From: Blastocatellia bacterium
GTDB taxonomy: Bacteria > Acidobacteriota > Blastocatellia > UBA7656
Reading direction: 5' to 3'
Assembly: GCA_036277095.1 (NCBI GenBank)
Contig: DASUNP010000110.1
Coordinates: forward strand, 5,444 to 69,443
Length of the DNA stretch: 64,000 bases
A model generated the notes under the pieces. That model did no database searches and had not been told where the DNA came from. It was given only the letters and a program-made list of their open reading frames with translations. Both the position numbers and the translations under genes were made by a program. Shown here piece after piece: positions 5,415 to 63,685 of this stretch; the stretch's first letter is position 1; every line of letters begins with the position of its first letter.

Positions 5415-5555
5415 CAGGGGTCGGGGGTCAGGGGTCAGGGGTCAGGGAAGAGGTTATCTGAAATATCAAATTTGTATGGCGGATGATGCGCTTGCGCGCG
5501 CCGCGATTACAAATCCCTGATCCCTGGCCCCCGACCCCCGACCCCTGGAGAGATT
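5415..5555 (+). repeat. Type-A junction element: phased heptamer array (CAGGGGT)x5 - AT/GC core - (ATCCCTG/ACCCCCG/ACCCCTG)x5, forming a ~33-bp imperfect inverted repeat; G-quadruplex-capable G-run arm
   Basis: Read directly: caggggt|cgggggt|caggggt|caggggt|cagggaa ... atccctg|atccctg|gcccccg|acccccg|acccctg|gagagat|tATG. The 7-nt phase is kept across all 141 nt. The right arm contains the SD of the next gene. Confidence 0.8.
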
Positions 5556-7982
5556 ATGGACACACTCATACAAGATTTGCGATACGCGGTCCGTATGCTG
5601 ATCAAGAAACCTGCATTTACTGCCATCGCTATTATCACGCTCGCGCTCGGCGTCGGGGCGAATACGGCGATCTTTAGCGTGGTCAACTCTGTTCTGCTTG
5701 AGCCGCCTCCATACAATGAGCCAGACCGGCTGGTCTGGCTCTCTCATGAGGATTCGCTCACGCCCGCAGACTTTCTCGATTACCGCGAGCAGGCGCAGAC
5801 GTTCGAGCACATTGCCGCGTTCATAGGCTGGGGCGTCAACCTCACGGGCAAAAGTGAGCCCGAGCGTTTGGCGGGCGCGCTCGTCTCCCCGGGGTTCTTC
5901 TCCGTGCTCGGCGTGCCCGCGATGATCGGTCACACCTTCACACCAGAACAGGAGCAGGATGCTTCCGCCCGATTTGCGGTCTTGAGCCACGGGCTGTGGG
6001 AGCGCCGTTTCGGGGCTGACGCCGGTGTCGTCGGCAGCTCGCTTCTGCTCAACGGCGAGAGCTTCACAGTAGTCGGAGTCATGCCGCGCGATTTTCGACA
6101 CCCGAGCGGAAAGGCCGAAGTCTGGGGCTTGGCAAGGCGAGTTGTGCCGGAATTGCCTTTCCGCACTTCCGACGTTATGCAGAACCGTCATCTGCATTAC
6201 CTTCAAGTCATCGGGCGGTTGAAGCCCAATGTGGCGATCACCCAGGCCCAGGCGGAGGTCGATACGATAGCGCAACGGCTTGAGCAGCAATACCCGAACA
6301 CGAATAAGGATGAACGCCTCGCGCTCGTGACCGTTCAAGAGCACGTAGTCGGCGATCTGAAGCTGCCGCTTTTGATACTGCTCGGGGCCGTCGGGTTCGT
6401 GTTGTTGATCGCGTGCGCGAACGTCGCGAACCTGATGTTGGTGAGGGCGAGCGGGCGCCGCCGCGAGATAGCCATACGCACAGCCCTCGGGGCGCAGCGG
6501 GGGCGAATAATCCGGCAGCTTCTGACCGAGAGCATGTTGATGGCTCTCGTCGGCGGGGGCGTGGGGCTGTTGCTTGCGCTTTGGGGCACGGACCTGCTGA
6601 TCTCCGTCAGCCCCGGCGCTCTGCCTAGCTTGAGAGATATAAGCCTCGACTCTCGCGTGCTCGCCTTCACACTTCTCACGTCGCTTTTGACGGGAGCGAT
6701 CTTCGGCCTTGTCCCCGCGCTCCAGGCGTCAAAGCCCAACCTGAACGAATCGCTTAAGGAGGGGAGCCGCAGCGCGGGCGGAGCGGGCAGCGCGCGAGTT
6801 CGCAACTCGCTTGTCGTAATCGAGATAGCGCTGTCGCTCGTTCTGCTCGCGGGCGCGGGACTTCTGATAAACAGCTTCCTCAAGCTCGCAAACACCGACC
6901 CCGGCTTCAAGGCTGAAGGCGTGTTGACTATGCGGCTCAATCTTTCAGGCAGCAATTATCAAAAGCCCGAACAGCTAGCCGCGTTTTACACTCAACTGCT
7001 CGACAGAGTCGAGGCTCTGCCCGGGATCGAGCGTGTGGGAGCAATCGAAGTCGCCCCGGTATTTTCGCGCGGCGCTTTTTACAGCTTTATCATCGACGGG
7101 CAGCCCGCCCCGATGGGCGAGCAGCAACGCGATAACGCTTCGGGGTTTCACTCCGTAAGCCCCGATTATTTTAACGCGATGGGAACTCCCTTTTTGACGG
7201 GCCGCCAGTTCAACGAAGCCGACACGCGTGAATCCGCGCAGGTGGTGATTATCAACCAGGAGATGGCCGAGCGCTACTGGCCCGGCGAAAGCCCTATCGG
7301 CAAGCGCATCAGTTACGGGACCAACGCCGATAACCAGCCGTCGTGGGTAGAGATCGTGGGCGTAGTCGGAAACGTGCGCCACGTCGGGTTGGACACCGAT
7401 GTCGACCCCGAGGCTTACGTGCCTTACACGCAAGCGCCTTATCGCTATATGACAATTATGATCCGCACGGCGACCGATCCCGAAAGCGTTGTCGCGGCAG
7501 TGCGGAGCCAGGTGCAGGCCCTCGACCCGCAGCAGCCTGTTTATGATTTCAAACCCATGACAGAAGTGATCGCGGATTCGCTCGCCAAGCGGCGGCTGAG
7601 CATGTTGTTGATAGGCATATTCGCTGCGGTGGCGCTCTTGCTTGCCGCCGTAGGAATATATGGCGTGATGTCGTACGCCGTCACGGAGCGGACGCGCGAG
7701 ATAGGCATTCGCGTCGCGCTCGGCGCGCAGATGGGCGATGTCATGAGACTTGTCGTGGGGCAGGGAATGACGCTCGCGCTCATAGGCATTGGCGCGGGTC
7801 TGGTCGTGGCGTTCTTGCTGACGCGACTCATAGAGAGCTTGCTTTACAAAGTGAGCACAACAGACCCGGCAACCTTCGTCGCGATCACTCTATTGCTCTT
7901 TGCAGTTGCATTCGTGGCGAGTTACATCCCCGCGCGTCGAGCGATGAGAGTCGACCCGATGGTCGCGTTGCGTTACGAATGA
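5556..7982 (+). CDS. ADOP-type duplicated permease
   Basis: 808 aa. MDTLIQDLRYAVRMLIKKPAFT ... [31 protein letters not shown] ... [16 protein letters not shown] ... [18 protein letters not shown] upstream. Its 3-prime end overlaps the convergent STAND gene by 10 nt. Confidence 0.9.
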   Translation: MDTLIQDLRYAVRMLIKKPAFTAIAIITLALGVGANTAIFSVVNSVLLEPPPYNEPDRLVWLSHEDSLTPADFLDYREQAQTFEHIAAFIGWGVNLTGKSEPERLAGALVSPGFFSVLGVPAMIGHTFTPEQEQDASARFAVLSHGLWERRFGADAGVVGSSLLLNGESFTVVGVMPRDFRHPSGKAEVWGLARRVVPELPFRTSDVMQNRHLHYLQVIGRLKPNVAITQAQAEVDTIAQRLEQQYPNTNKDERLALVTVQEHVVGDLKLPLLILLGAVGFVLLIACANVANLMLVRASGRRREIAIRTALGAQRGRIIRQLLTESMLMALVGGGVGLLLALWGTDLLISVSPGALPSLRDISLDSRVLAFTLLTSLLTGAIFGLVPALQASKPNLNESLKEGSRSAGGAGSARVRNSLVVIEIALSLVLLAGAGLLINSFLKLANTDPGFKAEGVLTMRLNLSGSNYQKPEQLAAFYTQLLDRVEALPGIERVGAIEVAPVFSRGAFYSFIIDGQPAPMGEQQRDNASGFHSVSPDYFNAMGTPFLTGRQFNEADTRESAQVVIINQEMAERYWPGESPIGKRISYGTNADNQPSWVEIVGVVGNVRHVGLDTDVDPEAYVPYTQAPYRYMTIMIRTATDPESVVAAVRSQVQALDPQQPVYDFKPMTEVIADSLAKRRLSMLLIGIFAAVALLLAAVGIYGVMSYAVTERTREIGIRVALGAQMGDVMRLVVGQGMTLALIGIGAGLVVAFLLTRLIESLLYKVSTTDPATFVAITLLLFAVAFVASYIPARRAMRVDPMVALRYE

Positions 7983-10900
7983 TCGTCAGTGGTGATTTCT
8001 AAACCTAGTTGCCGGGCAATCTCTTTTACTTCCTTATTGCGCCTGCCGTAGCCCATGCGCTCGATCATCTCTTTGGCAATTTTCCAATGCTCGCGAGCTT
8101 TGTCCCGATTGCCCTGCGCCAGATGCAGCCGTGCATATTCCAGATGACAATTAGCGAGATGCAAACCCATCCCGCTACGTGTGGCTATGCGAAGCACTTC
8201 AGTTAGATCGCGCTCGGCCAGCCCGTAATCACCATTAACCCGATGCAACTCCGCGCGCGTCAGCAGCCCGCGCGGTAAATGATGCGTTGTGCCTGCTTGT
8301 CGCAGTCCGTCCACGGCGCGTTGCAAAAACTCCGCCGCCTGTGTGGTATCACCCCTGCCCGCCTGTTGCGCTCCTAGCAGCGATGCGCGCCCCATTGAGA
8401 GATTATCCAATGCGATTTCGAGCAGCCAGTTGTTGCGTCTGGCAATCTCAAGCGTGTAGGCAGCGCGTTCTTTCACATCCTGTATCTGGCCCTGATTGAG
8501 CAGCAGATCGCAGTACTGAAATCCCCTCAATGAATAGAGGAACCTGTGTGCAGGCTGCCCTTGCTTTTCCATCTCTTCGGCCTCACGAAAGGCAATGACA
8601 GCTTCCTCTGTATGCCCCGCCTGATACAACGCATCGGCGAAGGCTGCTCTACTGATCATTCGTGGAAACTCGTCACCGCTGCGATCCGCCAGATCCACGC
8701 TCTGCTGGGCGAAGACGAGCGCCTGCGGCAGGTCGCCAATAGTCACGTAGAGTTCGCTGAGGTTGAGGGCATTGATAGCAGCATTTTCCCAATTCTCGCT
8801 TGCGATCCGCGCTTCCAACCCTGCCTGCATCGGCTGTGCCGCTTCCTCCAATCGTCCCAACGCTCGCAAATTAAAGCCAGCTTCACTCAGCACAAACGCT
8901 CTATAAGCATCCGAGAATCCTGCTACGGGTTGTTCCCATAGTATTTCAAAGAAGCTGGACAGTGTCGCCAAATCAGCGCCAAATGCGCCGAGCTTATGAA
9001 TACTAAATGCTTCTCTCCCTCTCCGAATCCGCCGCGAAAAGACCTCACCCGATGCTTCCTGATGTCTGCCCGCTGCGCAGCCATGCAAGACGGCTGCGAA
9101 CAGAGGCGACATCTCTTCCACCGTGTCAGGAAATTCTTTCGTTGTGCGCTTGAGGTGTTCGTAGAGCCGATTGTTCGCTTCCCGCCATGCGTCAGGGCGC
9201 TCGCGTTTGAGTTGTTGTTTGAAATACTCGCGCACCAGCGGATGAGCGTCCAGTGTGTCAGGCTCATTAATCAATTCTGCGCCCAGCAGCTTGATTCGGC
9301 GCAGATTTGCCAATGCCTCTTGCCATTTCACTTTACTCACATCCTGCAGCGCTTCGGTCAGACCCAGAATAGCGGGGGCCGCGCGCAAGGCAGCGATGCT
9401 TGCTGCGTCGGCGGGACGATCAAACAGCCCCATCATACGCAGCACCGCAAGTTCTACGCCTTCGCCCAGCCACTTCTCATAGGCAGCAATCATCTTTTGT
9501 GCCTTGTCGCCGGGCTGCCTGACATCAAACAGATTCTCAATCTCTCTGCGCCGCCGGATGTCTCCGCGCAACACCACATCCAGATAACTGCCCAACAGGG
9601 TCAGCGAGAAAGCGTGTCCGTTGAACTCTATTGCTGCCTCTTCCAATTCCTCTTCATCACCTTTGACATTCAGCGCACGCAAAACCTGTGCGCCTGCTTG
9701 CGGCGACAACTGGTCGAGGTCATGTTGTATGACCGTACTGTTTTCAAATTCAACCAGATCGCTCACTCGTTCGCGCGTCGAGATTACACACAACCCCGGT
9801 TGATGCGCCGCCAACTCGCGCAAAAGCGCCTGCAACGCCGCATCCTTCAACAATCCTCCTTGCGCGCCCGGCGGATGTTGCAGCGGTTCGAGTCCGTCGA
9901 GAATCAGCAGCGTGCGAGTCTGTCGAATAAGCCGCGCAAGCCTCTCGCCTTTGTCCCACGGCGTGCCTTGCGTCGGGTCATTGTCGCCAAAGTCTCGTAG
10001 CGCAGCGTAAATAAATTCATCGGCAGATGTCGCTTGCTCGTTCGTGCCCTGAGAGTAAAACGACCAGCTATAGACGCGCTCCGCGCCGCGATAGTTGTCG
10101 CGGGCCATGCGTTGTTTCACCCAATGATTGACCAGCGCGGTTTTGCCTACGCCGCCCCAGGCGACGAAAGCAATGATGTTGGTATTCGGATTCGCCCACG
10201 AGTCGTCGAGGAGTTGCAATTCTGCGTCGCGGCCAAAAAGGTCAGGCCCGCTCGTCGGCAAACGTGATATGGAGATCATGTCAGGCTCTAGCGATGGAGG
10301 TTTTTGCGGTTGAGATTCGATTGCAGTGTCAGTAGATGACCTTGATTGCGGGCCTGCCAACAACCCCGATGCCACCATTTCAAGCACGAATTCGGCGGCA
10401 TTTTCAGAAGCGATCTTTTGTCTCTGTTTTTTGCGGACGCCTTTTTTCCCATCAGCCCAATCGCAGATTGCTTTAATGAGTATCCAATTGACTTTGCTTT
10501 TGCTTTGCTCGCAGGCGATGTACAACCCTCCGCCTTCCATCTCTCCGCCAATCGCTTCTTCCGATAAGGCCAGCAGTTCATCCCGATAATCAATATTGTC
10601 AATCAACTTCTGCCCTGAAAGCACTACCCCGAAATCTACACCTGCTTTCTTCCAGCGCAGCCGAATCGTCCGAAAACGATCAAGCAGCTTTTCTGAGCAG
10701 TGCGGCTTGTCTCCCCGTAGGATGATTTTAGTTGCGCCTGCTTCTGTCGTCGCTACACGCTGAAGTTCATAAGGTTGAAGCTGCAATGAGACGAGGACAT
10801 CGCCAATCTTCTGCTTCTTAGGATTCACGCCAAAGGCGATTCCAACCAGGATGACATCGGATGGTTGCACCTCATCTATGGCATCTTTAACCGTCAGCAG

Positions 10901-11125
10901 AGAGCCGCCCCTTGTGTCTGCGCCCATTTCAGACCTGACGGCGAAAACACGCACGCCGCCGATCTCCCCCAGGTCGAAATAGGTTTTATGCCTTCCTGGT
11001 AGTTCCTTGTAATCGCGGTTAGTCAGGGCTTTGGTCCGTTCAAGCAGAGACTCGGTTTCGACGTCTGTCACGGTGACGAGTAAAACATCGCATCTCGATC
11101 TGAGTTCAGTGCCGGGCTTTTCCAT
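7973..11125 (-). CDS. STAND NTPase with N-terminal PNP_UDP/MTA-nucleosidase-like domain, NB-ARC ATPase and C-terminal TPR repeats (NLR-like, candidate defence/signalling protein)
   Basis: ORF-track frame 7973..11269. N-terminal region (RCDVLLVTVTDVETE ... GADTRGGSLLTVKDAIDEVQPSDVILVGIAFGV ... GGEMEGGGLYIACE) resembles purine/MTA nucleosidase motifs; compare the EME-x-A motif of MtnN. Walker A AWGGVGKTALV. Walker B TLLILDGLE. Sensor-1-like CVISTRE. GLPL-like GHAFSLTLLG. MHD-like DAHPLVREY. The C-terminal ~400 aa is helical-repeat/TPR-like. Start set at MEKPGT (11125), just before the first beta-strand of the nucleosidase fold. The upstream in-frame ATG at 11269 would add 48 low-complexity R-rich residues and lies inside a hairpin. 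Confidence 0.8.
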   Translation of the reverse strand: MEKPGTELRSRCDVLLVTVTDVETESLLERTKALTNRDYKELPGRHKTYFDLGEIGGVRVFAVRSEMGADTRGGSLLTVKDAIDEVQPSDVILVGIAFGVNPKKQKIGDVLVSLQLQPYELQRVATTEAGATKIILRGDKPHCSEKLLDRFRTIRLRWKKAGVDFGVVLSGQKLIDNIDYRDELLALSEEAIGGEMEGGGLYIACEQSKSKVNWILIKAICDWADGKKGVRKKQRQKIASENAAEFVLEMVASGLLAGPQSRSSTDTAIESQPQKPPSLEPDMISISRLPTSGPDLFGRDAELQLLDDSWANPNTNIIAFVAWGGVGKTALVNHWVKQRMARDNYRGAERVYSWSFYSQGTNEQATSADEFIYAALRDFGDNDPTQGTPWDKGERLARLIRQTRTLLILDGLEPLQHPPGAQGGLLKDAALQALLRELAAHQPGLCVISTRERVSDLVEFENSTVIQHDLDQLSPQAGAQVLRALNVKGDEEELEEAAIEFNGHAFSLTLLGSYLDVVLRGDIRRRREIENLFDVRQPGDKAQKMIAAYEKWLGEGVELAVLRMMGLFDRPADAASIAALRAAPAILGLTEALQDVSKVKWQEALANLRRIKLLGAELINEPDTLDAHPLVREYFKQQLKRERPDAWREANNRLYEHLKRTTKEFPDTVEEMSPLFAAVLHGCAAGRHQEASGEVFSRRIRRGREAFSIHKLGAFGADLATLSSFFEILWEQPVAGFSDAYRAFVLSEAGFNLRALGRLEEAAQPMQAGLEARIASENWENAAINALNLSELYVTIGDLPQALVFAQQSVDLADRSGDEFPRMISRAAFADALYQAGHTEEAVIAFREAEEMEKQGQPAHRFLYSLRGFQYCDLLLNQGQIQDVKERAAYTLEIARRNNWLLEIALDNLSMGRASLLGAQQAGRGDTTQAAEFLQRAVDGLRQAGTTHHLPRGLLTRAELHRVNGDYGLAERDLTEVLRIATRSGMGLHLANCHLEYARLHLAQGNRDKAREHWKIAKEMIERMGYGRRNKEVKEIARQLGLEITTDDHS

Positions 11126-11260
11126 CCTAAGCCTCACGCTATTGATCGAAAGTAATCTCAACCATACTAATCGAATTTCTCGAAGTGGCAAGGGCAAAGA
11201 ACGGCGGACGACAGAAGTCTTTATATTGGGAAACCATTTCCCAAAAGTGAACATCCGCCG

Positions 11261-11287
11261 GGCCGCCATTATTTGGCGGCCTTTTTC
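11261..11287 (+). terminator. Perfect 8-bp-stem palindrome GGCCGCCA-TTATT-TGGCGGCC followed by TTTTTCT (intrinsic-terminator-like on the + strand) in the divergent STAND/response-regulator intergenic region
   Basis: Read directly at 11261..11281 plus the T-tract. It overlaps the alternative upstream ATG (11269) of the STAND frame. Confidence 0.45.
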
Positions 11288-12594: not shown

Positions 12595-15027
12595 ATGGAA
12601 ACTCTTTTGAAAGAGGTCCGGTTTGGATTTCGGATGCTGCGCAAATCGCCGGGCTTTACGCTCGCGGCGGTCATCTCGCTTGCTTTGGGGATAGGCGCGA
12701 ACACAGCAATCTTTAGCGTCATAAACACTGTCTTAATAAAACAGCTTCCGTACAACGACCCCGAAAGCCTCGTGCTGCTCTGGGGCAAAGATGCCGCAGA
12801 AGGCACCGAGCGAGATCAGGTCTCTTTCACAGATGTTGAAGACTGGCGCAAGCAATCTCTCGCGTTCGAAGAGATCACCGCCTACACCGACTGGAGGCCG
12901 ATACTGTCGGGCGTGGGCGAAGCCGAAAGAGTTCCCGCGATGCAGGTCGGGGACGGTTACTTCCGCGTTATGAAAGCCGAGCCGATCCTGGGCCGCGTCT
13001 TCACGCCCGAAGAGCAACAAGAAGGCAAAGACTTTGTCATCATTCTGGGCTACGGATTGTGGCAGCGGCAGTTCGACCGAGACCCCGGCGTCGTAGGTAA
13101 GACTGTTTACCTCAACAGCCGACCTTACACGGTCGTCGGGGTAATGCCGGAAAGTTTTCAGCCGCTCCCGGCGGGGCTCGTCAATCCTGCGGCTGAGATG
13201 TACCGGCCCGTGGCCGAAGCCTACGACGATGAAGAACGCGGCTCTCGTCACCTCCGAGCTATCGGTCGCCTCAAGCCCGGCGTAGAGATCAAGCAAGCTC
13301 AATCTGAGATGACGCTGATTGCCGACCGCCTGACGCAAGAACATCCGCGATCAAACACGGATTACAGCGTTCGCGTAGTCAGCATCACGGACGACACTGT
13401 GGGCGGACTTCGCGAACCGCTGCTGCTCGTCTTCGGGGCAGTCGCTTTCGTGCTGCTGATCGCCTGCGCGAACGTGGGCAACCTGTTGCTTGCGAGGTCG
13501 ACGGCGAGGCAAAAAGAGATTGCGATCCGCGCGGCTCTCGGGGCGCGGCGGTGGCAGCTCATTCGACAGTTTTTAGCCGAAAGCCTGGTGCTCTCTTTGA
13601 TGGGCGGGGCGATCGGGCTTCTTTTTGCGCTGTGGGGCGTCGGGCTGATCGCGGAGGTCGCTTCGCGCGTAATGCCGCTCATAAGCCAGGTTGAGATAAA
13701 CCTTCCCGTGCTCGTGTTCACGCTGGCGGTTTCGGTTGTCACGGGGGTCGCCTTCGGACTTGCGCCCGCGCTCCACGCGACGAAGCCCGATCTGAACGAG
13801 TCGCTCAAAGAAGGCGGCCGCCAGTCGGGCGCCGGGGCGGCGCGCAACCACCTGCGCAACTGGCTCGTGATCTCAGAAGTGGCGCTCGCGCTGGTGCTGC
13901 TGGTATCGGCGGGGCTGATGATAAAGAGCGTCCTCAAGCTGCGAAACATCGATCCCGGTTTCAACGCTGAAAACGTCCTGACGATGGACGTATGGCTGCC
14001 CTACGCCAAGTATCGGAACGACCCGAGCCGGCTCGCCTTTTACGATCGCCTGATCGAGCAGGTGAAAACGATTCCCGCCGTTCAATCGGCTGGCGTGACA
14101 AGCATACTGCCGCTCGGCAGCAACTTCGATGGCCGAGCTATTCAAGTCGAAGACCGACCCGTCGCTTTAGGTGAAGAGCCCGAGGCGGAGCTTTACATAG
14201 CGACTCCCGGCTACCTGGAGGCGATGGAGATTCCCGTTCAACGAGGGCGATCATTTACAGAGCGCGATAAAGAGGGCGCGCCGTTGGTCGCGCTCGTCGG
14301 CGAAACATTCGCCGAGCGTTACTGGCCCGGCGAAAACCCCGTGGGCAAGCGGATCAGGTTCCCCGGCTCTGAGTCTCGACCGCAGCCGTGGCGCGAGGTC
14401 GTCGGAGTGGTAAAGGACGTGAAGCAAAAGAAGCTGGATACGGGCGGCACTTTGCAGATCTATATGCCGCTCGCGCAGTACCCTTCATCGGCGATGACGC
14501 TCGTGGTTCGCGCGGAGTCAGACCCCGCGTTGATGACGGCGGCGGTCCGAAAAGAGGTTCTCGCCGTCGATGCGGAGCAAGCCGTCTTCAACGTAGCGAC
14601 GATGAATCAATGGCTGACCGATTCGATCTCGCTGCGCCGTTTCTTGATGATGCTGCTCGGCGCGTTCGCGGTCGTGGCATTGACGCTCGCAGCCGTTGGC
14701 ATCTATGGCGTCATCTCTTATTCGGTCTCGCAGCGAACGCACGAGATAGGCATACGTCTCGCGCTCGGCGCAAAGAGCCGCGACGTGCTTAAGCTCGTCG
14801 TGGGTCACGGGCTGTGGCTCGCCGTGGTCGGCGTCGCTATCGGCGTGGCAGGCGCGCTCGCGGCGACGCAGTTGATGACAAGCCTGCTCTACTCTGTCGA
14901 AACGGCGGACCCCGCGACATACGTTTCAATCTCGCTGCTGCTCATTCTGGTAGCCGTTCTCGCAAGCTACATCCCGGCACTCCGCGCGTTAAGAGTAGAC
15001 CCGATGGTCGCGCTCAGGCACGAGTGA
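12595..15027 (+). CDS. ADOP-type duplicated permease
   Basis: 810 aa. [22 protein letters not shown] ... [31 protein letters not shown] ... [16 protein letters not shown] ... [18 protein letters not shown] upstream. Lies 33 nt downstream of the REC-PP2C gene. Confidence 0.9.
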
Positions 15028-15069
15028 TTTCAAATTTGAGATTTGAGATTTGAGATTGAGAGGGAACCT
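15028..15069 (+). repeat. AT-rich heptamer junction (TTTCAAA then TTTGAGA x3), 42 nt = 6 heptamers, merging into the SD
   Basis: tttcaaa|tttgaga|tttgaga|tttgaga|ttgagag|ggaacct ATG. Confidence 0.8.
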
Positions 15070-17544
15070 ATGGACAGCTTACTGCAAGATTTGCGTTACG
15101 CGATGCGCGCGATGATAAAGCGACCGGCCATCAACGCCGTGGCCGTGATCGCCCTGGCCTTAGGCATAGGCGCGAACACAGCGATCTTCAGCGTCATCAA
15201 CGCCCTGCTTTTGCAACCACTGCCCGGCGTCGAAGACCCCGACCGGCTCGCCGTCGTCTACACGTCGGATTTCAGCAGCAGCCTCTATAGCACCTCTTCG
15301 TTCCCTGACTACATCGATTTCCGTGACCGCAGCGACATGTTTTCGGGGCTTGCGGCTTTCAGCGATTCTGTCGCTATCAACCTGGGCGTGGGCGACGGGG
15401 CCGAGCGGATTCAAGGGGCGATCGTGACGGGCAACTATTTTTCTCTGCTCGGAGTCAGCCCGCGCATGGGCCGCACACTGCTGCCGGATGACGACAGGCC
15501 CCAAAGCAGCCCGGCCACGGTCCTGAGCCACGAGCTTTGGCAGAACCAGTTCGGGGCTGACCAGAACATCATCGGCAAGACCGTTAGCCTCAACAACCAG
15601 AGCTTCACGGTCGTAGGCGTCGCGCCCGACGAGTTCAAAGGCGTGCGCTTGGAATCGGCCCCCGCGCTGTGGATACCGATGGCGACGATAACGCTGATTC
15701 AACGCTCGCCCGCTACCATCTTCGCGCAGCGCGGCTCGCGGTGGCTAGGCATCATAGGCCGCCTTGGCCCTGGGGCCACCGCCGAGCAGGCGCAGGCGCA
15801 GATACAGACTATCGCCGACGGTTTAGCCGCCGCTTACCCAGACACGAATCTGGGAACGCTCCAACAGCCCGATCAACCCCGGCCCATGTCTGTCGTTCCC
15901 GCGAACGTGGCTATGGTCAACCCCAACACGCGCGAGGAGACGGAAAACTTTGTAACGCTTCTTATGATAGTGGTCGCGGTGGTTCTGGTGATCGCGTGCG
16001 CCAACGTGGCTAACCTGCTTATCGTTCGCGCTCGCGGGCGTCAGAAAGAGATTGCCGTGCGCCTCGCTTTAGGCGCGAGCCGCTTCCGCATCATACGGCA
16101 GATGCTTACTGAAAGCCTCTTTCTATCCCTTGTGGGCGGGGCCGCGGGGCTGCTGGTGGCCGTCTGGATGACCGAACTCTTATCTTCATTCGACCAGCTA
16201 AGCTCTTTCGCCGCGCTCGACATAAGCGTCGATACCAGCGTGCTGGTATTCACATTGATAGTCTCGGTCATGACTGGAATTCTTTTCGGGCTCGCCCCCG
16301 CGATACAAGCATCAAGACCCGATCTGGTACCCGCCTTGAAAGATTCGCAAGGCCGGGAGATTTCCCGGAACCGCCGGTTCGGCCTGCGCAGCCTCCTCGT
16401 GGTATTTCAAGTCGTCTTATCTATGGTCTTGCTCATAGGCGCGGGGCTTTTCATCAGAAGCTTGCAGAAGGCTTACACGACTGATCTCGGCTTTGCCGTA
16501 AACAACGCTCTGCTCGTCACGGTCGATCTGAACGCTCAAGGATACAACGAGGCTCAAGGGAGAGAGTTCTACAAACAACTCTTAGAGCACGTCGAGGCTC
16601 TGCCGCGCGTCGAGTCCGCGAGCATGGCGGCATACATTCCCGTCAACGCGAACGGCAGCAGAGATAGCGTGATAGTCGAAGGCTATGAGCCGCGCCCGGG
16701 CGAGGACATGGAGCTTAACATCAACACCGTCGAGCACAGCTATTTTGAAGCCCTGGGCATACAGATTCAATCGGGGCGTGGCTTCGACGAGCAGGACCGA
16801 TTGTCGCCGCAAAAAGTTGTGATAAATGAAGCGATGGCCGAACGCTACTGGCCTGGGCAGTCGCCAGTCGGCAGGCGCATCAAGTTGGGCGATGCGCGAA
16901 GCCCTTTTCTTGAGATCATAGGCGTAGCCAGGACGGGCAAGTACCGCAGCTTCCGTGAGCAGCCGCTGCCTTACATCTACCTGCCATACGATCAACAGTA
17001 CAGGACCAGGATGACGCTATTGGTTCGCGCGACGGGAAACCCGGCCACGATCTTGCCCGCCGTGCGGGCCGAGGTCCAAAGGCTCAATAAAAACGTCCCG
17101 CTCTACAATGTGAAAACCCTTACAGAGCATTTAGGCGTTGCGCTCGCCAGGGAGCGGATGATTGCTACGCTCGTTGGCATGTTCGGGCTGCTTGCGCTGT
17201 TGCTCGCGGCGGTAGGCATTTACGGGCTCATGGCGCACTCGGTCTCCGAGCGCGTTCACGAGATAGGTATTCGCATGGCGCTGGGCGCGCAGAAGAGAGA
17301 CATACTCGTGCTCGTGCTGGGCCATAGCTTGTTGCTTTCCGGGGTGGGCCTGGTCGCGGGCATCGTCTCTACGCTCGTTTTCACCCGTCTGATCTCCAGC
17401 CTGCTTTACGAGGTCAGCCCTACTGACTCTGTAGCCTTTGTGACAGCCGCGCTGACGCTGACCGGAGTGATGTTGCTGGCGAGCTACATCCCGGCCCGTC
17501 GCGCCGCGAATGTCGACCCGATGGTCGCGCTCAGGTACGAATAG
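15070..17544 (+). CDS. ADOP-type duplicated permease
   Basis: MDSLLQDLRYAMRAMIKRPAINA ... VIACANVANLLIVRARGRQKEIAVRLALGA ... [16 protein letters not shown] ... [13 protein letters not shown] at 15070 preceded by GAGAGGG. The ORF-track start 15043 is a TTG inside the heptamer junction. Confidence 0.9.
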   Translation: MDSLLQDLRYAMRAMIKRPAINAVAVIALALGIGANTAIFSVINALLLQPLPGVEDPDRLAVVYTSDFSSSLYSTSSFPDYIDFRDRSDMFSGLAAFSDSVAINLGVGDGAERIQGAIVTGNYFSLLGVSPRMGRTLLPDDDRPQSSPATVLSHELWQNQFGADQNIIGKTVSLNNQSFTVVGVAPDEFKGVRLESAPALWIPMATITLIQRSPATIFAQRGSRWLGIIGRLGPGATAEQAQAQIQTIADGLAAAYPDTNLGTLQQPDQPRPMSVVPANVAMVNPNTREETENFVTLLMIVVAVVLVIACANVANLLIVRARGRQKEIAVRLALGASRFRIIRQMLTESLFLSLVGGAAGLLVAVWMTELLSSFDQLSSFAALDISVDTSVLVFTLIVSVMTGILFGLAPAIQASRPDLVPALKDSQGREISRNRRFGLRSLLVVFQVVLSMVLLIGAGLFIRSLQKAYTTDLGFAVNNALLVTVDLNAQGYNEAQGREFYKQLLEHVEALPRVESASMAAYIPVNANGSRDSVIVEGYEPRPGEDMELNINTVEHSYFEALGIQIQSGRGFDEQDRLSPQKVVINEAMAERYWPGQSPVGRRIKLGDARSPFLEIIGVARTGKYRSFREQPLPYIYLPYDQQYRTRMTLLVRATGNPATILPAVRAEVQRLNKNVPLYNVKTLTEHLGVALARERMIATLVGMFGLLALLLAAVGIYGLMAHSVSERVHEIGIRMALGAQKRDILVLVLGHSLLLSGVGLVAGIVSTLVFTRLISSLLYEVSPTDSVAFVTAALTLTGVMLLASYIPARRAANVDPMVALRYE

Positions 17545-17620
17545 CATCGTCATTCGTCATTTGTCATTTGTCCTTCGCATTCTCTTCAAAGGACGAATGA
17601 CTAAGGACAAAGGACAGATT
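17545..17620 (+). repeat. Type-B junction element: (TCATTCG/TCATTTG/TCATTTG/TCCTTCG) arm and complementary (GACGAAT/GACTAAG/GACAAAG/GACAGAT) arm forming a hairpin whose right arm supplies the SD
   Basis: catcg|tcattcg|tcatttg|tcatttg|tccttcg|cattctc|ttcaaag|gacgaat|gactaag|gacaaag|gacagat|tATG. Short remnants GACAAAGGACA(G/A)ATTATG also occur at 411-427 and 22628-22643. Confidence 0.75.
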
Positions 17621-20038
17621 ATGGACACGCTCATAAGAGATTTGCGATACGCGGTTCGTATGCTGGCAAAAAAGCCTGCCTTCACGGTCGTGGCGGTGCT
17701 GGCGCTGGCTTTGGGGATAGGAGCCAACACGGCGATCTTCAGCGTAGTCAATGCCGTGCTGCTGCGCCCGCTTCCCTATAGCGAGCCGGATCGGATCGTA
17801 AAGGTGTGGGAAGTCTTTCCGAACGTAAACCTCCGGGCCGATAAAGCGAGTGTCGCGCCCGCCAACTTCATCGACTGGGCTAATCAGAATCAGGTCTTTG
17901 AACAGATCGCAGCTTATAGCGGCGCGCGCGCGGGATTCAATTTCACAGAGGGCGGCCAGTCCGAACATATACAGGGCGCGCGCGTCTCGGCCAGCCTGTT
18001 CCCGCTCCTGGGCGTTCAGCCGATCCTGGGTCGCTTCTTCACAGAGGATGAGGACCGGCAGGGTAATCACCGGGTTATTGTCTTAAGCCAGGGGTTCTGG
18101 CAGCGCAGGTTTGGTTCAGACCACGACATCCTCGGCAGGACGCTCATTCTCAACCTCCGCAGCTACACTGTGATCGGGGTTATGCCTGCCTCCTTTGACG
18201 TGCCGCGCTCGGTCGACTTTTGGGTCCCGATGGCTTTCGACGCCGAAGAGGCGAAGACGCGCGATTTCCATTATCTCAGCGTGATAGCTCGCCTCAAGCC
18301 GAACGTCACGGTCGAGCAGGCGCGCGCCGAGATGATAGTGGTCGCTAGCCGCCTGGAACAGGAGCACCCGGTAACCAATGCCAATTACGGTGTGCAACTC
18401 AATCTGTTGCGCGAGCACCTGGTCGGCCCGGTTCGGCCCGCGCTGCTCACCCTGCTCGGCGCAGTCGGGCTGGTCCTGCTAATCGCCTGTGCAAACATAG
18501 CCAACCTATTGTTGGCCCGCGCGGCAGCCCGGCAAAAAGAGATCGCCATTCGTCAGGCTCTTGGCGCAAGCCGTCTCCGGCTGATTAAGCAGATGCTGAC
18601 AGAGAGCCTGCTTTTGTCTCTGCTGGGCGGCGTCATCGGCGCGATAATCGCTTTGTGGGGGACAGACCTTCTCGCCAGCCTTAGCCCGGAAAATATCTCG
18701 GGCCTCGGTCAAATCAAAAACGATGCTCGCGTGTTCGGCTTCACCCTGGCAATCTCGCTGCTGACGGGCGTCATCTTTGGCCTCGCGCCCGCCCTCCAAG
18801 CCACGAAGCCGCGTCTGAGCGAGATGCTCAAAGAAGGCGGACGCTCTGTGGGCGGCTCGGCCCGCAGCCGCACGCGGAGGCTGCTGGTCGTTTCGGAAGT
18901 GGCGTTGTCGCTCGTGCTGCTGGTAGGGGCGGGGTTGATGATAAAAAGTTTCATGCAACTTCAAAGCGTCGCCCCCGGATTCGATTCCAATAACCTGCTG
19001 ACGGTCAAGCTCTCCCCAACTATTTCCAAGTTTCGCAACCAGGGTGAAGGCATCGCTTTCTACCAGAAGGTCATCAATCAAGTCGAGTCGCTGCCCGGTG
19101 TCGTTTCGGCAGCCGCGGTCACTCACCTTCCTCTCAGCAATGATAACCTGAGCCTCACGTTCACAATCGATGGGCGGCCTGCGCCGGCTCCAGGTGAAGT
19201 GCTTTCCGCCGAGGCTCGCGCAATCAGCCCCAATTATTTTCAGACCATGTCGATCCCCTTTTTAAGCGGACGTGATTTTACGGATCGAGATAATGCTCAA
19301 GCCGCGCCCGCGATCATAATCAACGCAAAGATGGCCGACACGTTCTGGCCCGGCGAGGACCCTGTGGGTAAGCGCCTGTTTATGGACAACGAAAAGACTT
19401 CGCGCGAGATCGTGGGCGTTGTGGGGGATGTGAAGCATTGGGGGCTTGAGGAAGAATCGAGACCCGAGATGTACTGGCCGCTTTATCAAAACCCTGTCGT
19501 ATTCATGTCAGTCGTGATTCGCTCGACTTCGGATGCCGCCGGTCTGGCTGCCGCCGTGAGAAGCGAAGTCGAAGCGATCGACAAAGATCAGCCCGTCTAC
19601 AACACCAGGACCATGGAGCAGTTGCTTTCCCGCTCCGTGGCTACTCGGCGCTTTACCGTGCTCTTACTCGCCGTCTTCGCAGCTGTGGCACTGGTCCTGG
19701 CAGGCGGCGGAATATACGGCGTCATATCTTATTCGGTCTCTCAGCGGACGCGCGAGATAGGTATTCGCATGGCGCTCGGCGCGAGGTCGCAAGACGTTCT
19801 CGAAATTGTAGTGGGCGAGGGGTTAAAGCTCGCCGCCGTTGGCGTGGCGATAGGGCTTGCCGGGTCGTTAGCGTTAACCCGCTTGCTGTCAAGCATGCTT
19901 TATGGTGTGAGCACGACCGACTCTCAAACTTTTATAGGCGTCTCGCTGCTGCTTACGTTTGTGTCTTTGCTTGCGAGCTACATCCCCGCGCGCCGCGCAA
20001 CGAGAGTCGATCCGTTAGTCGCGCTCAGGTACGAATGA
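17621..20038 (+). CDS. ADOP-type duplicated permease
   Basis: MDTLIRDLRYAVRMLAKKPAFT ... [31 protein letters not shown] ... [16 protein letters not shown] ... VDPLVALRYE. ATG at 17621 preceded by AAGGACA. ORF-track start 17510 lies inside the previous gene and junction. Confidence 0.9.
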   Translation: MDTLIRDLRYAVRMLAKKPAFTVVAVLALALGIGANTAIFSVVNAVLLRPLPYSEPDRIVKVWEVFPNVNLRADKASVAPANFIDWANQNQVFEQIAAYSGARAGFNFTEGGQSEHIQGARVSASLFPLLGVQPILGRFFTEDEDRQGNHRVIVLSQGFWQRRFGSDHDILGRTLILNLRSYTVIGVMPASFDVPRSVDFWVPMAFDAEEAKTRDFHYLSVIARLKPNVTVEQARAEMIVVASRLEQEHPVTNANYGVQLNLLREHLVGPVRPALLTLLGAVGLVLLIACANIANLLLARAAARQKEIAIRQALGASRLRLIKQMLTESLLLSLLGGVIGAIIALWGTDLLASLSPENISGLGQIKNDARVFGFTLAISLLTGVIFGLAPALQATKPRLSEMLKEGGRSVGGSARSRTRRLLVVSEVALSLVLLVGAGLMIKSFMQLQSVAPGFDSNNLLTVKLSPTISKFRNQGEGIAFYQKVINQVESLPGVVSAAAVTHLPLSNDNLSLTFTIDGRPAPAPGEVLSAEARAISPNYFQTMSIPFLSGRDFTDRDNAQAAPAIIINAKMADTFWPGEDPVGKRLFMDNEKTSREIVGVVGDVKHWGLEEESRPEMYWPLYQNPVVFMSVVIRSTSDAAGLAAAVRSEVEAIDKDQPVYNTRTMEQLLSRSVATRRFTVLLLAVFAAVALVLAGGGIYGVISYSVSQRTREIGIRMALGARSQDVLEIVVGEGLKLAAVGVAIGLAGSLALTRLLSSMLYGVSTTDSQTFIGVSLLLTFVSLLASYIPARRATRVDPLVALRYE

Positions 20039-20170
20039 CAGGGATCAGGGGTCAGGGGTCGGGGGTCAGGGTTTTGTAATTTCAATGGCGGATGATGCGC
20101 TTATGCGCGCCGCGATTTCAAATCCTTACCCCTGACCCCTGGCCCCCGACCCTCGACCCCTGGAGGGATT
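20039..20170 (+). repeat. Type-A junction element (second copy)
   Basis: cagggat|caggggt|caggggt|cgggggt|cagggtt ... tccttac|ccctgac|ccctggc|ccccgac|cctcgac|ccctgga|gggattATG. Shares the central block atggcggatgatgcgctt..gcgcgcgccgcgatt with the 5415 copy. Confidence 0.8.
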
Positions 20171-22627
20171 ATGAATACGCTCTTGAGAGATTTGCGATAC
20201 GCGGTTCGTATGCTGGCAAAGAGGCCTGCCTTCACGGTCGTGGCTGTGCTGGCGCTGGCTTTGGGGATAGGAGCCAACACGGCGATCTTCAGCGTAGTCA
20301 ATGCCGTGCTGCTGCGCCCTATGCCGTACGAGAACCCGGACCAGCTAATTATGCTCTGGGAGACTAACCCGAGGCTTCAGCTCGGGTTCGATGAGGTTTC
20401 AGTCGCGCCCGCTAACTATGTCGACTGGAAAAACCAGAATAGCGTGTTCGAACAGCTCGCGGCTTTCTGGCCCAGCACCTATAACATCACCGATGCAGGC
20501 CAGCCCGAAAGGCTCGAAGGCGTAGAAGTCTCGTCAGATCTATTCTCCTTGCTGGGCGTTCAGGCGGCTCGCGGTCGGACTTTTTCCAAAGGTGAGGATG
20601 AGCTGGGTAATCACCGTGTCGTCGTCGTAAGCCACGGCCTCTGGCAGCGGCGCTTCGCATCAGACCCCGAACTCATAAATAGAACGATCAAGCTTAACGG
20701 CGAAGAGTTCACCGTCGTCGGCGTCATGCCCGAAGGCTTCCAGTTCCCGCGCAGGACCGAGCTGCCCGCACAGTATCGGTTCTTCCCCCCTCAGCCGGAG
20801 CTATGGACCCCGCTTGCCTTCACTCCCGCCCGCATACAGAATCGCGGCACTCACAACATTGCCGTCATGGGCAGGCTTAAATCGGGTGTCACGATAGATC
20901 AAGCGCGAGCCGAAATGAGTTCTATCGCAAGCCACCTCGCGGAGCAGTATCCCAGGACTAATCGCGGCTTCGACGTGCTGCTCACGCCCTTGCACGATCA
21001 GGCCGTGGGGCGCGTGAAACCTGCGCTCCTGATTCTGTTCTCTGCCGTCGGGCTTGTATTGATGATCGCCTGCGCGAACGTCGCGAATCTTCTGCTCGCG
21101 CGCGCGGCGACCAGAAAGAAAGAAGTCGCTATACGCACGGCCCTCGGAGCGGGACGGCGGCGGCTCGTCCGGCAGTTCTTGACCGAAAGCGTGTTGCTCG
21201 CTTTTGTAAGCGGAATACTCGGTTTGCTGCTGGCTCTGTGGGGCATAGATATTCTTTTGGCGCTCGCGCCCGAAAACCTCCCGCGCCTGCACGAGGTAAG
21301 CCTGGACATTTATGTGCTCGGCTTTACCCTGCTGGTTTCGCTCGTCGTGGGGGTGGCCTTCGGACTGGCTCCGGCCTATCAGGCTTCAAAGCCCGACCTC
21401 ACCGAAGCGCTCAAAGAAGGAGCGAGGGGCTCGGCCGTAAGCATCGTCCGCAACCGCACCCGCAGCCTTCTGGTGGTTGCTGAGATTGCGCTGTCGCTTG
21501 TGTTGCTCGTTGGCGCGGGGCTGTTGATAAAGAGCTTCATCAAGCTCCAGCAGGTCGATCCCGGTTTCAATCCCGAGCGGGTCTTTACGATCGACATAGC
21601 GCTGCCTGACGCGACTTATCCTGAAGCCGATCGCCAGCTAGCCTTCTTCGATCAAGCCCTCGATAAAATCGCTGCTTTGCCCGGCGTCGAGTCTGCGGCC
21701 ATCAGCACGAGCATACCCTTCAGCGGGTCAGAAAACAGCACCAGCTTTTCCGTCGAGGGGAGCCCGCCCGCCGATCAGATCCCCCAGGCCGATTACGCGA
21801 TGATAGGGCCGGGATTCTTCAACACGATGGGCATCCCCTTCGTGCGCGGGCGCGATTTTACAGAGCGCGATAACAGAGAGGCCCCGCAGGTTGTTATCGT
21901 TAGCAAGAGCCTGGCCGAGCAATTCTTCCCGGGCGCGGACGCAATCGGGAAACGGTTAAATATTTCGCTTAGCTCTGAGGGGCCGAGGCCGAGTGAGATC
22001 GTCGGGATAGTCGGAGACGTGAAGTATTCTGCGTTGAACGCCGAGCAAATACCTGCGCTCTACCTGCCGCACAAACAATTCCCCGGCGGCTTTGTATACG
22101 TGGTCGTGCGTTCTGCTTCCGACCCGTCGAGCCTCGCCGCTAGCGTTCGCGGCGAAGTCTGGACAATCGATAAAAACTTGCCGGTCTCTTCCTTACAGAC
22201 GATGGAGCAATTAATCGCCACTTCGGTCGCGTCACAGCGATTCAACATGCTGCTGCTTGTAATATTCGCAGCCGTGGCGCTGGTCCTGGCGGCCGTCGGA
22301 ATCTACGGCGTGATGAGTTATTCAGTCACACAACGCACTCACGAGATAGGCATACGCATGGCTCTAGGCGCGCAGGCCGTAGACGTGTTGGCGCTGGTTG
22401 TGAGGCAAGGGATGGGGCTCGCATTCGCGGGCGTCGGCGTGGGACTCTGCGCGGCGTTTGTTTTGACGCGGTTCATGCAGAGCTTGCTTTTCGGAGTAGC
22501 TGCCACAGACGCAGCTACATTTATTCTCATCTCGTTGCTGCTGACCGCGGTGGCCATAATGGCGAGTTATTTCCCCGCGCGCCGTGCAACGAGAGTCGAT
22601 CCGTTAGTCGCGCTCAGGTACGAATGA
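20171..22627 (+). CDS. ADOP-type duplicated permease
   Basis: 818 aa. MNTLLRDLRYAVRMLAKRPAFT ... [31 protein letters not shown] ... [16 protein letters not shown] ... VDPLVALRYE. SD GGAGGG upstream. The first ~150 nt are ~94% identical to the 5-prime end of the 17621 paralog. Confidence 0.9.
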   Translation: MNTLLRDLRYAVRMLAKRPAFTVVAVLALALGIGANTAIFSVVNAVLLRPMPYENPDQLIMLWETNPRLQLGFDEVSVAPANYVDWKNQNSVFEQLAAFWPSTYNITDAGQPERLEGVEVSSDLFSLLGVQAARGRTFSKGEDELGNHRVVVVSHGLWQRRFASDPELINRTIKLNGEEFTVVGVMPEGFQFPRRTELPAQYRFFPPQPELWTPLAFTPARIQNRGTHNIAVMGRLKSGVTIDQARAEMSSIASHLAEQYPRTNRGFDVLLTPLHDQAVGRVKPALLILFSAVGLVLMIACANVANLLLARAATRKKEVAIRTALGAGRRRLVRQFLTESVLLAFVSGILGLLLALWGIDILLALAPENLPRLHEVSLDIYVLGFTLLVSLVVGVAFGLAPAYQASKPDLTEALKEGARGSAVSIVRNRTRSLLVVAEIALSLVLLVGAGLLIKSFIKLQQVDPGFNPERVFTIDIALPDATYPEADRQLAFFDQALDKIAALPGVESAAISTSIPFSGSENSTSFSVEGSPPADQIPQADYAMIGPGFFNTMGIPFVRGRDFTERDNREAPQVVIVSKSLAEQFFPGADAIGKRLNISLSSEGPRPSEIVGIVGDVKYSALNAEQIPALYLPHKQFPGGFVYVVVRSASDPSSLAASVRGEVWTIDKNLPVSSLQTMEQLIATSVASQRFNMLLLVIFAAVALVLAAVGIYGVMSYSVTQRTHEIGIRMALGAQAVDVLALVVRQGMGLAFAGVGVGLCAAFVLTRFMQSLLFGVAATDAATFILISLLLTAVAIMASYFPARRATRVDPLVALRYE

Positions 22628-22640
22628 CAAAGGACAAATT

Positions 22641-33760: not shown

Positions 33761-33773
33761 GTTGAGCAACTTT

Positions 33774-57901: not shown

Positions 57902-57906
57902 GCTAT

Positions 57907-63671: not shown

Positions 63672-63685
63672 AGCTGACACTATCT

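Follow-up and report, generated by a model that had tools for sequence, protein, structure and literature searches.

Why are the gaps between successive genes of a bacterial permease array filled with tandem 7-nt repeats, and do these repeats act as switches or as binding sites for the genes that follow them? The question arises in a 64,000-nt stretch of DNA from a Blastocatellia bacterium (contig DASUNP010000110.1 of assembly GCA_036277095.1), which is called the window below and to which all positions refer unless a locus with an L-number is given. The window contains a tandem array of ADOP-family duplicated permease genes, and the element under study is the 42-nt spacer at 15028-15069 between two of them. 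We find that this repeat is a heptanucleotide simple sequence repeat (SSR) of a known class, with a unit identical to that of no named family. Period-7 repeats of many different units, mostly in inverted arrays, are found throughout the lineage, and the focal repeat is one of them; they accumulate in transcribed intergenic DNA, especially between tandem ADOP paralogues. With a probability of roughly 0.6, we read the focal array as a heptamer microsatellite driven by slippage and recombination, which would give the mRNA a weakly structured, A/U-rich leader between the cistrons and affect expression quantitatively at most.

The focal spacer is the whole gap between the TGA of the upstream gene (15025-15027) and the ATG of the downstream gene (15070). 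It reads as one TTTCAAA unit, three TTTGAGA units and the tail TTGAGAGGGAACCT, for which Tandem Repeats Finder (TRF) reports a period of 7, with 5.3 copies and 86% matches. At least three head-to-tail copies of a 7-nt unit are present; the perfect units number only three, plus one variant. With F for TTTCAAA-type and R for TTTGAAA-type units, the order is F R R R. The Shine-Dalgarno sequence (SD) GAGAGGG lies at 15058-15064 and is followed by a gap of 5 nt to the ATG, which falls outside the repeat units. The three TTTGAGA units place a TGA at 15037 (frame 0), 15044 (frame 1) and 15051 (frame 2), such that UGA occurs in every reading frame. Many other heptamer units likewise contain TGA (or TCA in the opposite arm), and three of them in tandem give stops in all frames before the next SD. 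The focal array has no G-tract, and hence nothing resembling a G-quadruplex (G4) motif of at least four tracts of at least three G separated by short loops.

Five junctions of the window are of this AT-rich type, with lengths of 43, 42, 41, 41 and 42 nt. Two more AT-rich copies are nested within GC-rich hairpins (the cores listed in Table 1), which brings the sites to seven. The 12-mer TTTCAAATTTGA, with one mismatch allowed, has 14 matches in the window, where 0.15 are expected, and none of 100 shuffles had as many. All 14 lie at ADOP junctions, in stop-to-SD spacers inside the array; no match was found in the promoter or divergent regions of the window, the intergenic region of the Crp-like and XRE regulators included. 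A preliminary description made from the sequence alone had reported AT-rich heptamer tandem repeats in front of start codons at five junctions, two of them exactly 42 nt long, and in this it was accurate (the two are 15028-15069 and 41567-41608; the repeats are borne out by the sequence, by TRF and by the 12-mer excess). Its decomposition of 42 nt into six heptamers does not hold, as these spacers are built of about four units and an SD tail of 13-15 nt. It had also called the 14-mer TTTCAAATTTGAAA a perfect palindrome; that is correct for the copy at 2855-2868 and only there, the focal copy TTTCAAATTTGAGA being mismatched once. The dyad symmetry arises because the unit is mixed with its own reverse complement.

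The AT-rich spacers are part of a wider pattern. Seventeen period-7 arrays of three or more copies lie in the window, compared with a mean of 0.16 and a maximum of 2 in 50 dinucleotide shuffles. Heptamer repeats occupy nearly every junction of the gene array and are of at least six unit types, the AT-rich one included. Most of these junction arrays are inverted, starting flush at the stop codon and ending flush at the SD.

Orthologs of the downstream gene (P0001-P0008, 82-94% amino-acid identity) led to eight loci, L001-L008, that could be compared with the window. In place of the 42 nt of the window, the junction upstream of the 824-aa ortholog measures 39 nt in L004 (TCTCAAATCGCAGCGCGATTTGAGATTGAAAGGGAACCT), 36 nt in L005 (TTTGAAATTTGAGATTTGAGATTCGAAAGGGGACCT) and in L002, 35 nt in L003, 17 nt in L001 (TCATTGAAGGGGGACCT, with no repeat) and 10 nt in L006 and L007 (AAGGAAAGCG and AAGGAGAGCG, respectively), while in L008 it is a 93-nt hairpin of the GTCAGTT type. 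The unit number at this junction is 4 in the window, 3 in L005 and 0 in L001. Clade-wide, AT-rich junctions fall into length groups of about 21, 29, 35-36 and 41-44 nt that follow one another in 7-nt steps. Their F and R units come in variable order, most often F F R F, and the minimal 21-nt junctions already hold the seed TTTCAAATTGA(A/G)A. The ADOP-to-ADOP junctions of L006 and L007 are mostly 9-10 nt long (AAGGAAAGCG and similar), a minimal stop-SD-start layout with no heptamers; the exceptions are two junctions of 27 and 58 nt, again without a heptamer array. The heptamers are therefore dispensable for the array. Other orthologous junctions, paired by the best hits of their flanking genes, are just as dissimilar. 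The 110-nt composite at 25062 corresponds to a plain AT-rich spacer of 44 nt in L003, to a 150-nt GGCAAAA/TTTTGCC hairpin in L001 and to 10 nt in L007. As orthologous junctions can be wholly different, the heptamer elements evolve far faster than the genes that flank them.

The focal junction also bears on the gain and loss of genes. In L001, L002, L003 and L007, the first ADOP gene that follows the response regulator is orthologous over its full length to the upstream gene at 12595-15027 (82-91% identity). At these four loci, one or two extra ADOP genes, only about 50% identical to any gene of the window, stand before the 824-aa gene; the window is alone in having none there. In L004, L005 and L008, the gene directly upstream of the 824-aa ortholog is not the ortholog of 12595-15027. 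Over its last 21 nt, the focal spacer differs at one position from the orthologous junction of L004, and in L002 both junctions relevant to a deletion are AT-rich heptamer arrays. We infer that the focal array is probably the joint of a one-gene deletion of about 2.45 kb, with the crossover within the junction repeats. It would then start behind the stop codon of the first array gene, and the 21 nt at its 3' end would be those of the junction that relatives have before the 824-aa gene. Near-identical strains were sought in metagenomes with the focal SD tail and the start of the gene as anchors, and no match was obtained.

The same layout was seen well beyond the close relatives. A scan of species-representative genomes provided a distant set of 80 ADOP loci (1.4 Mb) from metagenome-assembled genomes (MAGs) of Acidobacteriota and Gemmatimonadota. 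Period 7 is the commonest tandem period among arrays of at least three copies: the close set has it in 40 of 45 arrays and the distant set in 69 of 158. The period-7 arrays are intergenic in 87 cases and lie within crude open reading frame (ORF) calls in 22, intergenic DNA making up 14% of the bases; their flanking genes are co-directional in 70 cases, convergent in 14 and divergent in none. Within the distant set, arrays are present at 17 of 87 ADOP-to-ADOP junctions and at 6 of 317 other co-directional junctions (odds ratio 12.6, p = 4e-8). Counted per locus, the figures are 10/37 and 6/67 (p = 0.02), and none of the 157 divergent regions of this set has a period-7 array. Unit sequences are unrelated between genomes, as illustrated by GTGTTAG/ACCCAAC and CAAGTGA/CTTGTCA in L015, AGCTGTC/GCTGATA in L022 and L051, and GATTGAC/CAATCGG in L072. 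An inverted partner lies within 250 nt of 66 of 110 arrays (60%), as opposed to 4 of 110 shuffled controls, and the number of units per array has a median of 4.4 (interquartile range 3.9-4.9, maximum 8.6). The units being unrelated and the layout the same, it is the period and the architecture that are conserved and not the sequence.

The AT-rich unit itself is not confined to ADOP genes. The pattern TTTCAAATNTCAAATTTGARA matched at least 120 metagenome contigs, which bears out the enrichment of the motif outside the array that the preliminary description had proposed to look for. Eighty of these contigs were fetched, 65 of which have at least 50% GC; an ADOP gene lies within 900 nt of the match in 2 of the 80. 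On the high-GC contigs, the match is flanked by co-directional genes in 24 cases, by convergent genes in 6 and by divergent genes in 6, and falls in crude ORF calls in 12. Three units (24 contigs) and four units (27) predominate over five (10) and more than five (4). These 65 contigs (386 kb) carry 173 tandem arrays, 127 of them with period 7, about 70 of which use other unit types. The focal repeat is therefore an instance of a genome-wide heptamer habit, and not a signal specific to ADOP genes or to this locus.

We examined the junctions for structure and for expression signals. The predicted RNA fold of the focal spacer is weak (-7.9 kcal/mol, z score -1.28), 24 of 200 shuffles folding as well. 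Its AT-rich siblings range from z -0.7 to -2.7, the best being 41567-41608 with -10.6 kcal/mol (z -2.7). Stable stem-loops, as in repetitive extragenic palindromes (REP) or bacterial interspersed mosaic elements (BIME), are thus found in the GC-rich siblings (z -5.3 to -10.2) and not in the focal spacer. Sixteen aligned AT-rich spacers of 41-44 nt (A1) have a consensus fold of only -1.34 kcal/mol. In this alignment, pairing is possible between the unit next to the stop and TTGARA beside the SD, and a C-G pair is flipped to G-C in two paralogous spacers of L003, which is a hint, not proof, that the pairing constrains the spacer. When the sense and antisense strands of 49 junction elements, which are not independent of one another, were folded, the sense strand had 149 G-U pairs to 101 and a mean energy difference of -2.0 kcal/mol (p = 0.03). 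Positions -14 to +3 of the focal junction have a predicted unpaired probability of 0.60. Predicted accessibility of the ribosome-binding site (RBS) lies between 0.15 and 0.67 and is unrelated to the type of junction, and for this reason sequestration of the SD was rejected as a general role. Intrinsic terminators were rejected likewise, as 19 terminator-like sites compare with a shuffle expectation of 19.2 and none lies at a junction or on a junction hairpin; so were sigma-70 promoters, whose counts equal the shuffle expectation, with none on the + strand at junctions. At gathering thresholds, Rfam identified no RNA family in the window.

The microsatellite reading starts from what was observed, namely the repeat, its excess over chance, its placement and wide distribution, the 7-nt steps in its length and its dispensability in relatives. 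From the comparative data, replication slippage would gain and lose 7-nt units, while palindrome-templated copying and recombination between junction arrays would homogenise the units, flip them and spread them. In the mRNA, the array would be an A/U-rich, weakly structured leader that ends at the SD, leaves the ribosome-binding site accessible and supplies UGA in all three frames. Because the unit number alters only the distance from stop to SD, an effect on re-initiation or translational coupling would be modest and quantitative, with no on/off switch. Several points weigh against this account. The identical unit occurs at many unrelated loci and contigs, which is hard to obtain by independent slippage and hints at dispersal or selection. 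The four-unit form of 41-44 nt predominates at paralogous and orthologous junctions alike; together with the A1 pairing of unit 1 with TTGARA and its flip, this may mean some structural constraint. ADOP-to-ADOP junctions carry period-7 arrays 4-12 times as often as other co-directional junctions do, an enrichment that a neutral process predicts only if recombination between paralogues spreads junction sequences. The apparent one-gene deletion could in principle be an assembly collapse.

The array could instead be a selected module of control at the RNA level, an account we hold to be unlikely. It would act as a landing pad of the S1 type or for standby ribosomes, or else the weak stem of unit 1 with TTGARA would couple the translation of paralogues by holding the upstream stop near the downstream SD, with the GC-rich siblings serving as REP-like stabilisers of the mRNA or as barriers to its processing. 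Elements that run flush from stop to SD in many independent unit families suit such a role, as do siblings that fold far better than shuffles (z -5 to -10), yet the focal fold is no better than its shuffles (z -1.28), and the outer pairing of A1, with its one change on both sides, goes with a 16-spacer consensus of -1.34 kcal/mol. RBS accessibility shows no difference between junction types. The confinement of the distant-set arrays to co-directional and convergent contexts (0/157 divergent) speaks for the module, whereas in metagenomes the TTTCAAA-type unit does occur in divergent regions and beside unrelated genes. The slight sense-strand bias (G-U 149 vs 101; energy p 0.03) is in the expected direction but marginal, and the sequences compared are not independent. 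Enrichment of arrays at ADOP junctions would fit the module as well, and MacGregor (PMC4679880) has proposed binding of S1, Csp or CsrA for heptamers before start codons; on the other hand, the order and number of units are not conserved, and the repeat is wholly missing at the orthologous junctions of L001 (17 nt) and of L006 and L007 (10 nt). It is likewise improbable that the junction elements make up a dedicated, phylum-wide ADOP system, with arms bound by a specific factor or serving as programmed recombination joints. If that were so, the system would set which paralogues are expressed or drive the gain and loss of cassettes, and the focal one-gene deletion joint would be an example of this process under way.

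An origin by insertion, by which a miniature element, mobile or dispersed and comparable to REP-like elements, would enter junctions and become itself a target for nested insertions, with the AT-rich array being this element or derived from it, also seems to us to have little probability. The AT-rich unit pattern does recur on at least 120 metagenome contigs of 50-68% GC beside unrelated genes, AT-rich cores are nested in CAGGGGT arms (25062-25171 and 44039-44160), and AT-rich palindromes of the window, L003, L004 and L006 have at their centre, in one orientation or the other, the GC-rich module ATGGCGGATGATGCGC.... Small dispersed repeats are reportedly embedded in tandem heptamers in Nostoc too (Elhai et al. 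2008, Genome Research). However, no defined termini or target-site duplications were seen beyond the units, the unit number varies continuously in 7-nt steps, and among the ORFs scanned, a part of those in the window, no gene for a transposase or RAYT-like protein stood out; given the seed TTTCAAATTGA(A/G)A in 21-nt junctions, local expansion is sufficient. The preliminary description had put forward slipped-strand phase variation. Slippage holds up on an evolutionary timescale, given the 7-nt length steps and the differences between relatives. As a contingency locus, in which frequent slippage of TTTGAGA would reversibly switch or modulate the downstream permease within a population, the array is a very poor candidate. 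Three perfect tandem units are a possible substrate, unit numbers do differ (4 here, 3 in L005, 0 in L001), and repeats in a 5' untranslated region can modulate expression, as the AGAT repeats of uspA2 do (PMC4679880), but the tract has few units, not all of them perfect (for the class, the median is 4.4 units and the maximum 8.6), and lies upstream of the SD and outside the ORF. A unit gained or lost leaves the reading frame and the SD-ATG spacing untouched, and there is no promoter-like site overlapping the array whose spacer could be altered. Like repeats flank unrelated genes, relatives have repeat-free junctions of 10 or 17 nt, and Rehm et al. were equally negative for their own heptamers (PMC4692102). 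The palindromic TTTCAAATTTGAAA had further been taken for the operator of a dimeric regulator, such as the Crp-like or XRE protein encoded at 54.9-56.3 kb, and this we consider extremely unlikely. Both regulators exist with confirmed domains, and the 14-mer, perfectly palindromic at 2855-2868, is nearly so at its other sites. All 14 motif matches nevertheless lie within the operon, between a stop and the next SD, and none in a promoter or divergent region; the F/R order varies freely between junctions, many further genomes hold the motif in abundance, whatever the context, and it adjoins unrelated genes there, and half-sites of the form TTGAA-N2-TTCAA do not fit the CRP or FNR consensus. As the focal repeat bears no sign of switching or operator function, it should receive no annotation as a contingency locus or binding site.

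Repeats of this kind have been described in other phyla. Heptamers are, in the account of Mrazek (2007) as relayed by PMC4679880 and PMC4692102, the most abundant class of long SSRs in many prokaryotes, for which a 7-nt bias of polymerase slippage was proposed. As far as that relayed account goes, the focal repeat shares with the Mrazek SSRs the head-to-tail 7-nt units, the intergenic excess, the scattered phylogeny, the variable unit number and the proposed slippage. It differs from them, to the same extent, in that the arrays are short (3-5 units), that the unit is quasi-palindromic and A/T-rich and occurs in both orientations within one array, and that the arrays take up the entire distance from stop to SD between paralogues. 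Rehm et al. (2015; PMC4692102) described G-rich GGGAATC and GGGGA(C/T)T heptamers in Xanthomonas and Nostoc, with a four-unit mode and intergenic over-representation. They lie between aligned ORFs, within 50 bp of a stop (sense) or upstream of an ORF (antisense), form 70-75 inverted pairs per Xanthomonas genome, vary strongly in length among related species and have no link to phase-variable functions (PMC4692102). The junctions analysed here resemble them in having about four units, co-oriented ORFs, a G-rich strand after the stop and a C-rich strand before the next ORF, inverted pairs and lengths that vary between related species; neither set is linked to surface or virulence genes. The CAGGGGT/ACCCCTG junctions of the window fit the description of Rehm et al. 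and carry G4 motifs. The focal array, by contrast, is A/T-rich, consists of other units and has no G-tracts, and a G-quadruplex can therefore explain neither the array nor its four-unit mode.

Closer in composition are the TTTTGAA/TTCAAAA repeats upstream of start codons in Nostoc PCC 7120 (bioRxiv 10.1101/2022.06.06.494920). They have an A/T-rich unit made of a T-run, a G or C and an A-run, and, like the focal repeat, occur in both orientations; the unit is TTTTGAA there and TTTCAAA here, and the phylum is another. These repeats and the short tandemly repeated repetitive (STRR) sequences of Calothrix and Nostoc also share with the window several heptamer families per genome, an intergenic position in operons and proximity to starts. 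The sequences of STRR1-3 are presumably similar, though not identical, to the ACCCCTG, TTTGTCA and CAACTGA units of the window. TTTCAAA/TTTGAGA is no rotation of the GGGAATC/GGGGAYT, TAACTGA or TTTTGAA units, nor is it known to be one of STRR1-3. In marine Beggiatoaceae, some Cyanobacteria and Bacteroidetes, MacGregor (2015; PMC4679880) reported direct repeats of TAACTGA shortly before start codons. As here, two to six copies stand within a few nucleotides of the start, and a post-transcriptional role is proposed, not proven; in both cases the units carry stop codons, and for this reason the arrays cannot extend into ORFs. The TAACTGA arrays are mostly direct repeats of one orientation, replace a recognisable SD and have no predicted fold, whereas here orientations are mixed, a canonical SD follows and sibling arrays form hairpins. 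Contingency loci (the tetranucleotides of Haemophilus and Neisseria, the 5' repeats of Moraxella uspA1 and uspA2) have in common with the focal spacer short tandem units near a gene start that are gained and lost. The focal spacer differs in its few and imperfect units, in a position without effect on frame, promoter or SD-ATG spacing, and in having no link to a variable surface function. REP and BIME elements, for their part, are dispersed palindromes in transcribed co-directional or convergent intergenic DNA, and the stable stem-loops of the GC-rich siblings and the nested composites recall them. Here, however, the arms consist of tandem heptamers, the focal copy forms no stable hairpin, and neither a REP-like consensus nor an association with RAYT has been shown.

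The gene array that carries these junctions comprises about 20 tandem ADOP genes on the + strand, from 425 to 54174. Both genes that flank the focal spacer score well above the TIGR03434 cutoff for ADOP of 622 bits (Table 1); they are co-oriented and presumably co-transcribed. Identity to named Blastocatellia and Acidobacteriota proteins is about 50-54%. An exact-protein look-up matched no record for the upstream protein, and the 824-aa protein found only distant homologues, with 34-45% identity, among species-representative genomes. The gene content of the array is fluid. Two ADOP genes of the window, at 17621-20038 and 20171-22627, are missing at that position in L001, L003, L005 and L007, and L002 has an extra copy. 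In L001, the ortholog of 12595-15027 (4995-7428 of that locus) is split into two ORFs of 456 and 347 aa, by pseudogene formation or by an assembly error. Some junctions of L001 (for example 7540-7562) and that at 10230-10253 of L015 have TCACC before the SD GGAGGTGA, which produces the mini-palindrome TCACCGGAGGTGA; its anti-SD-like sequence could sequester the SD. The two regulators mentioned above are supported by their domains, HTH_Crp_2 and cNMP_binding in the Crp-like protein (54914-55606) and HTH_3 in the XRE protein (55805-56278). Between the first ADOP genes and the response regulator, the - strand encodes a 1098-aa protein (7973-11269) with an N-terminal MTA/SAH-nucleosidase-like domain and an AfsR/MalT-like (STAND-type) region; its gene is apparently fragmented in L001. 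Downstream of two non-ADOP genes, at 48150-48252 and 63688-63766, lies a palindromic element, CCGCAGAGACGCAGAGA...CTCTGCGTCTCTGCGGTGAAT, the 3' motif of which adjoins an AT-rich heptamer array in one metagenome contig (L140). A short-read contig (L209) of SRR25158523 ends inside this element. That contig is 100% identical to 56216-63714 of the window over 7,499 nt, and by this measure of sequence identity SRR25158523 contains the same strain as the window.

The heptamer junctions other than the AT-rich ones are given with their folds in Table 1. The 3' arm of the hairpin at 17545 is an extension of the ancestral SD region CAAAGGACAGATT, the minimal 13-nt form of which is found at 412-424 and 22628-22640. 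Seven of the nine canonical G4 motifs of the window are CAGGGGT/ACCCCTG junction arms, and in these junctions the G-rich strand comes directly after the stop and the C-rich strand directly before the next SD. A GC-rich module of about 35 nt, ATGGCGGATGATGCGC...GCGCGCCGCGATT, is central in junction palindromes in either orientation and has the look of a small dispersed insert within the heptamer arrays. A short ORF within it (MADDALARAAI...) was rejected as a peptide gene, as the module is present in both orientations.

Table 1. Genes, spacers and junction elements of the window, with related sites at other loci where named
Feature	Position	Strand	Details
Upstream ADOP-family duplicated permease gene	12595-15027	+	810 aa; TIGR03434, 1017 bits
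Downstream ADOP permease gene	15070-17544	+	824 aa; TIGR03434, 945 bits
Focal spacer, unit 1, TTTCAAA (F orientation)	15028-15034	+	abuts stop codon; from sequence reading
Focal spacer, three perfect TTTGAGA units (R orientation, reverse complement of TCTCAAA)	15035-15055	+	from sequence and TRF
Focal spacer, tail TTGAGAGGGAACCT	15056-15069	+	partial unit grading into SD; from sequence reading
AT-rich sibling spacer, F R F F	2855-2897	+	43 nt; perfect palindrome TTTCAAATTTGAAA
AT-rich sibling spacer, F F R F	27608-27648	+	41 nt
AT-rich sibling spacer, F F R F	30076-30116	+	41 nt
AT-rich sibling spacer, F F R R	41567-41608	+	42 nt; best hairpin of AT-rich class
GC-rich junction hairpin, (CAGGGGT)x4.7 with ACCCCTG-type units	5415-5555	+	runs stop to SD; nested GC-rich module 5476-5508; -94.8 kcal/mol, z -10.2 (RNA fold, 5415-5558)
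GC-rich junction hairpin, CAGGGGT/ACCCCTG	20039-20170	+	nested module 20085-20117; -78.8 kcal/mol, z -6.7
Composite junction, CAGGGGT arms around AT-rich core	25062-25171	+	TTTCAAA/TTTGAGA core 25089-25123; -59 kcal/mol, z -5.6
Degenerate composite, decayed CAGGGGT-type arms	44039-44160	+	AT-rich core 44080-44107; -40.6 kcal/mol, z -1.3
Junction hairpin, TCGTCAT/TTGTCAT paired with CAAAGGA/GACAAAG units	17545-17620	+	RNA fold z -5.3
Hairpin of TTGTCAT/GACAAAG family	54175-54244	+	3' end of last ADOP gene, convergent context; -33.9 kcal/mol, z -7.5
Junction hairpin, GTCAGTT paired with CAACTGA units	49180-49278	+	-53.2 kcal/mol, z -8.1
Junction hairpin, CTGAGT(G/C) paired with CACTCAG units	33700-33773	+	TRF 3.6 copies; RNA fold z -2.9
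G4 motifs	5417-5441, 20041-20065, 25064-25087	+	CAGGGGT/ACCCCTG arms
G4 motifs	5515-5539, 20129-20152, 25130-25155, 44117-44142	-	CAGGGGT/ACCCCTG arms
Module ATGGCGGATGATGCGC...GCGCGCCGCGATT	5476-5508, 20085-20117; L003 ~3557; L004 3774-3787; L006 4546-4559		reverse in L004 and L006

Our literature search found no report of heptamer repeats in Acidobacteriota or at ADOP genes. Two results go slightly beyond the literature cited, namely the enrichment of arrays at ADOP junctions and the four-unit mode, which A/T-rich arrays have as well; their sharing this mode argues against the G-quadruplex as its general cause. Heptamer repeats break short-read assemblies and mark the sites at which paralogues are gained and lost, which is of relevance to the annotation of MAGs. 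Tandem ADOP arrays offer dozens of replicated stop-to-SD junctions at which unrelated heptamers arise, invert, nest and vanish between close relatives. These junctions are a natural series on the question of why 7-nt units dominate the long SSRs of bacteria and form inverted pairs at the ends of genes.

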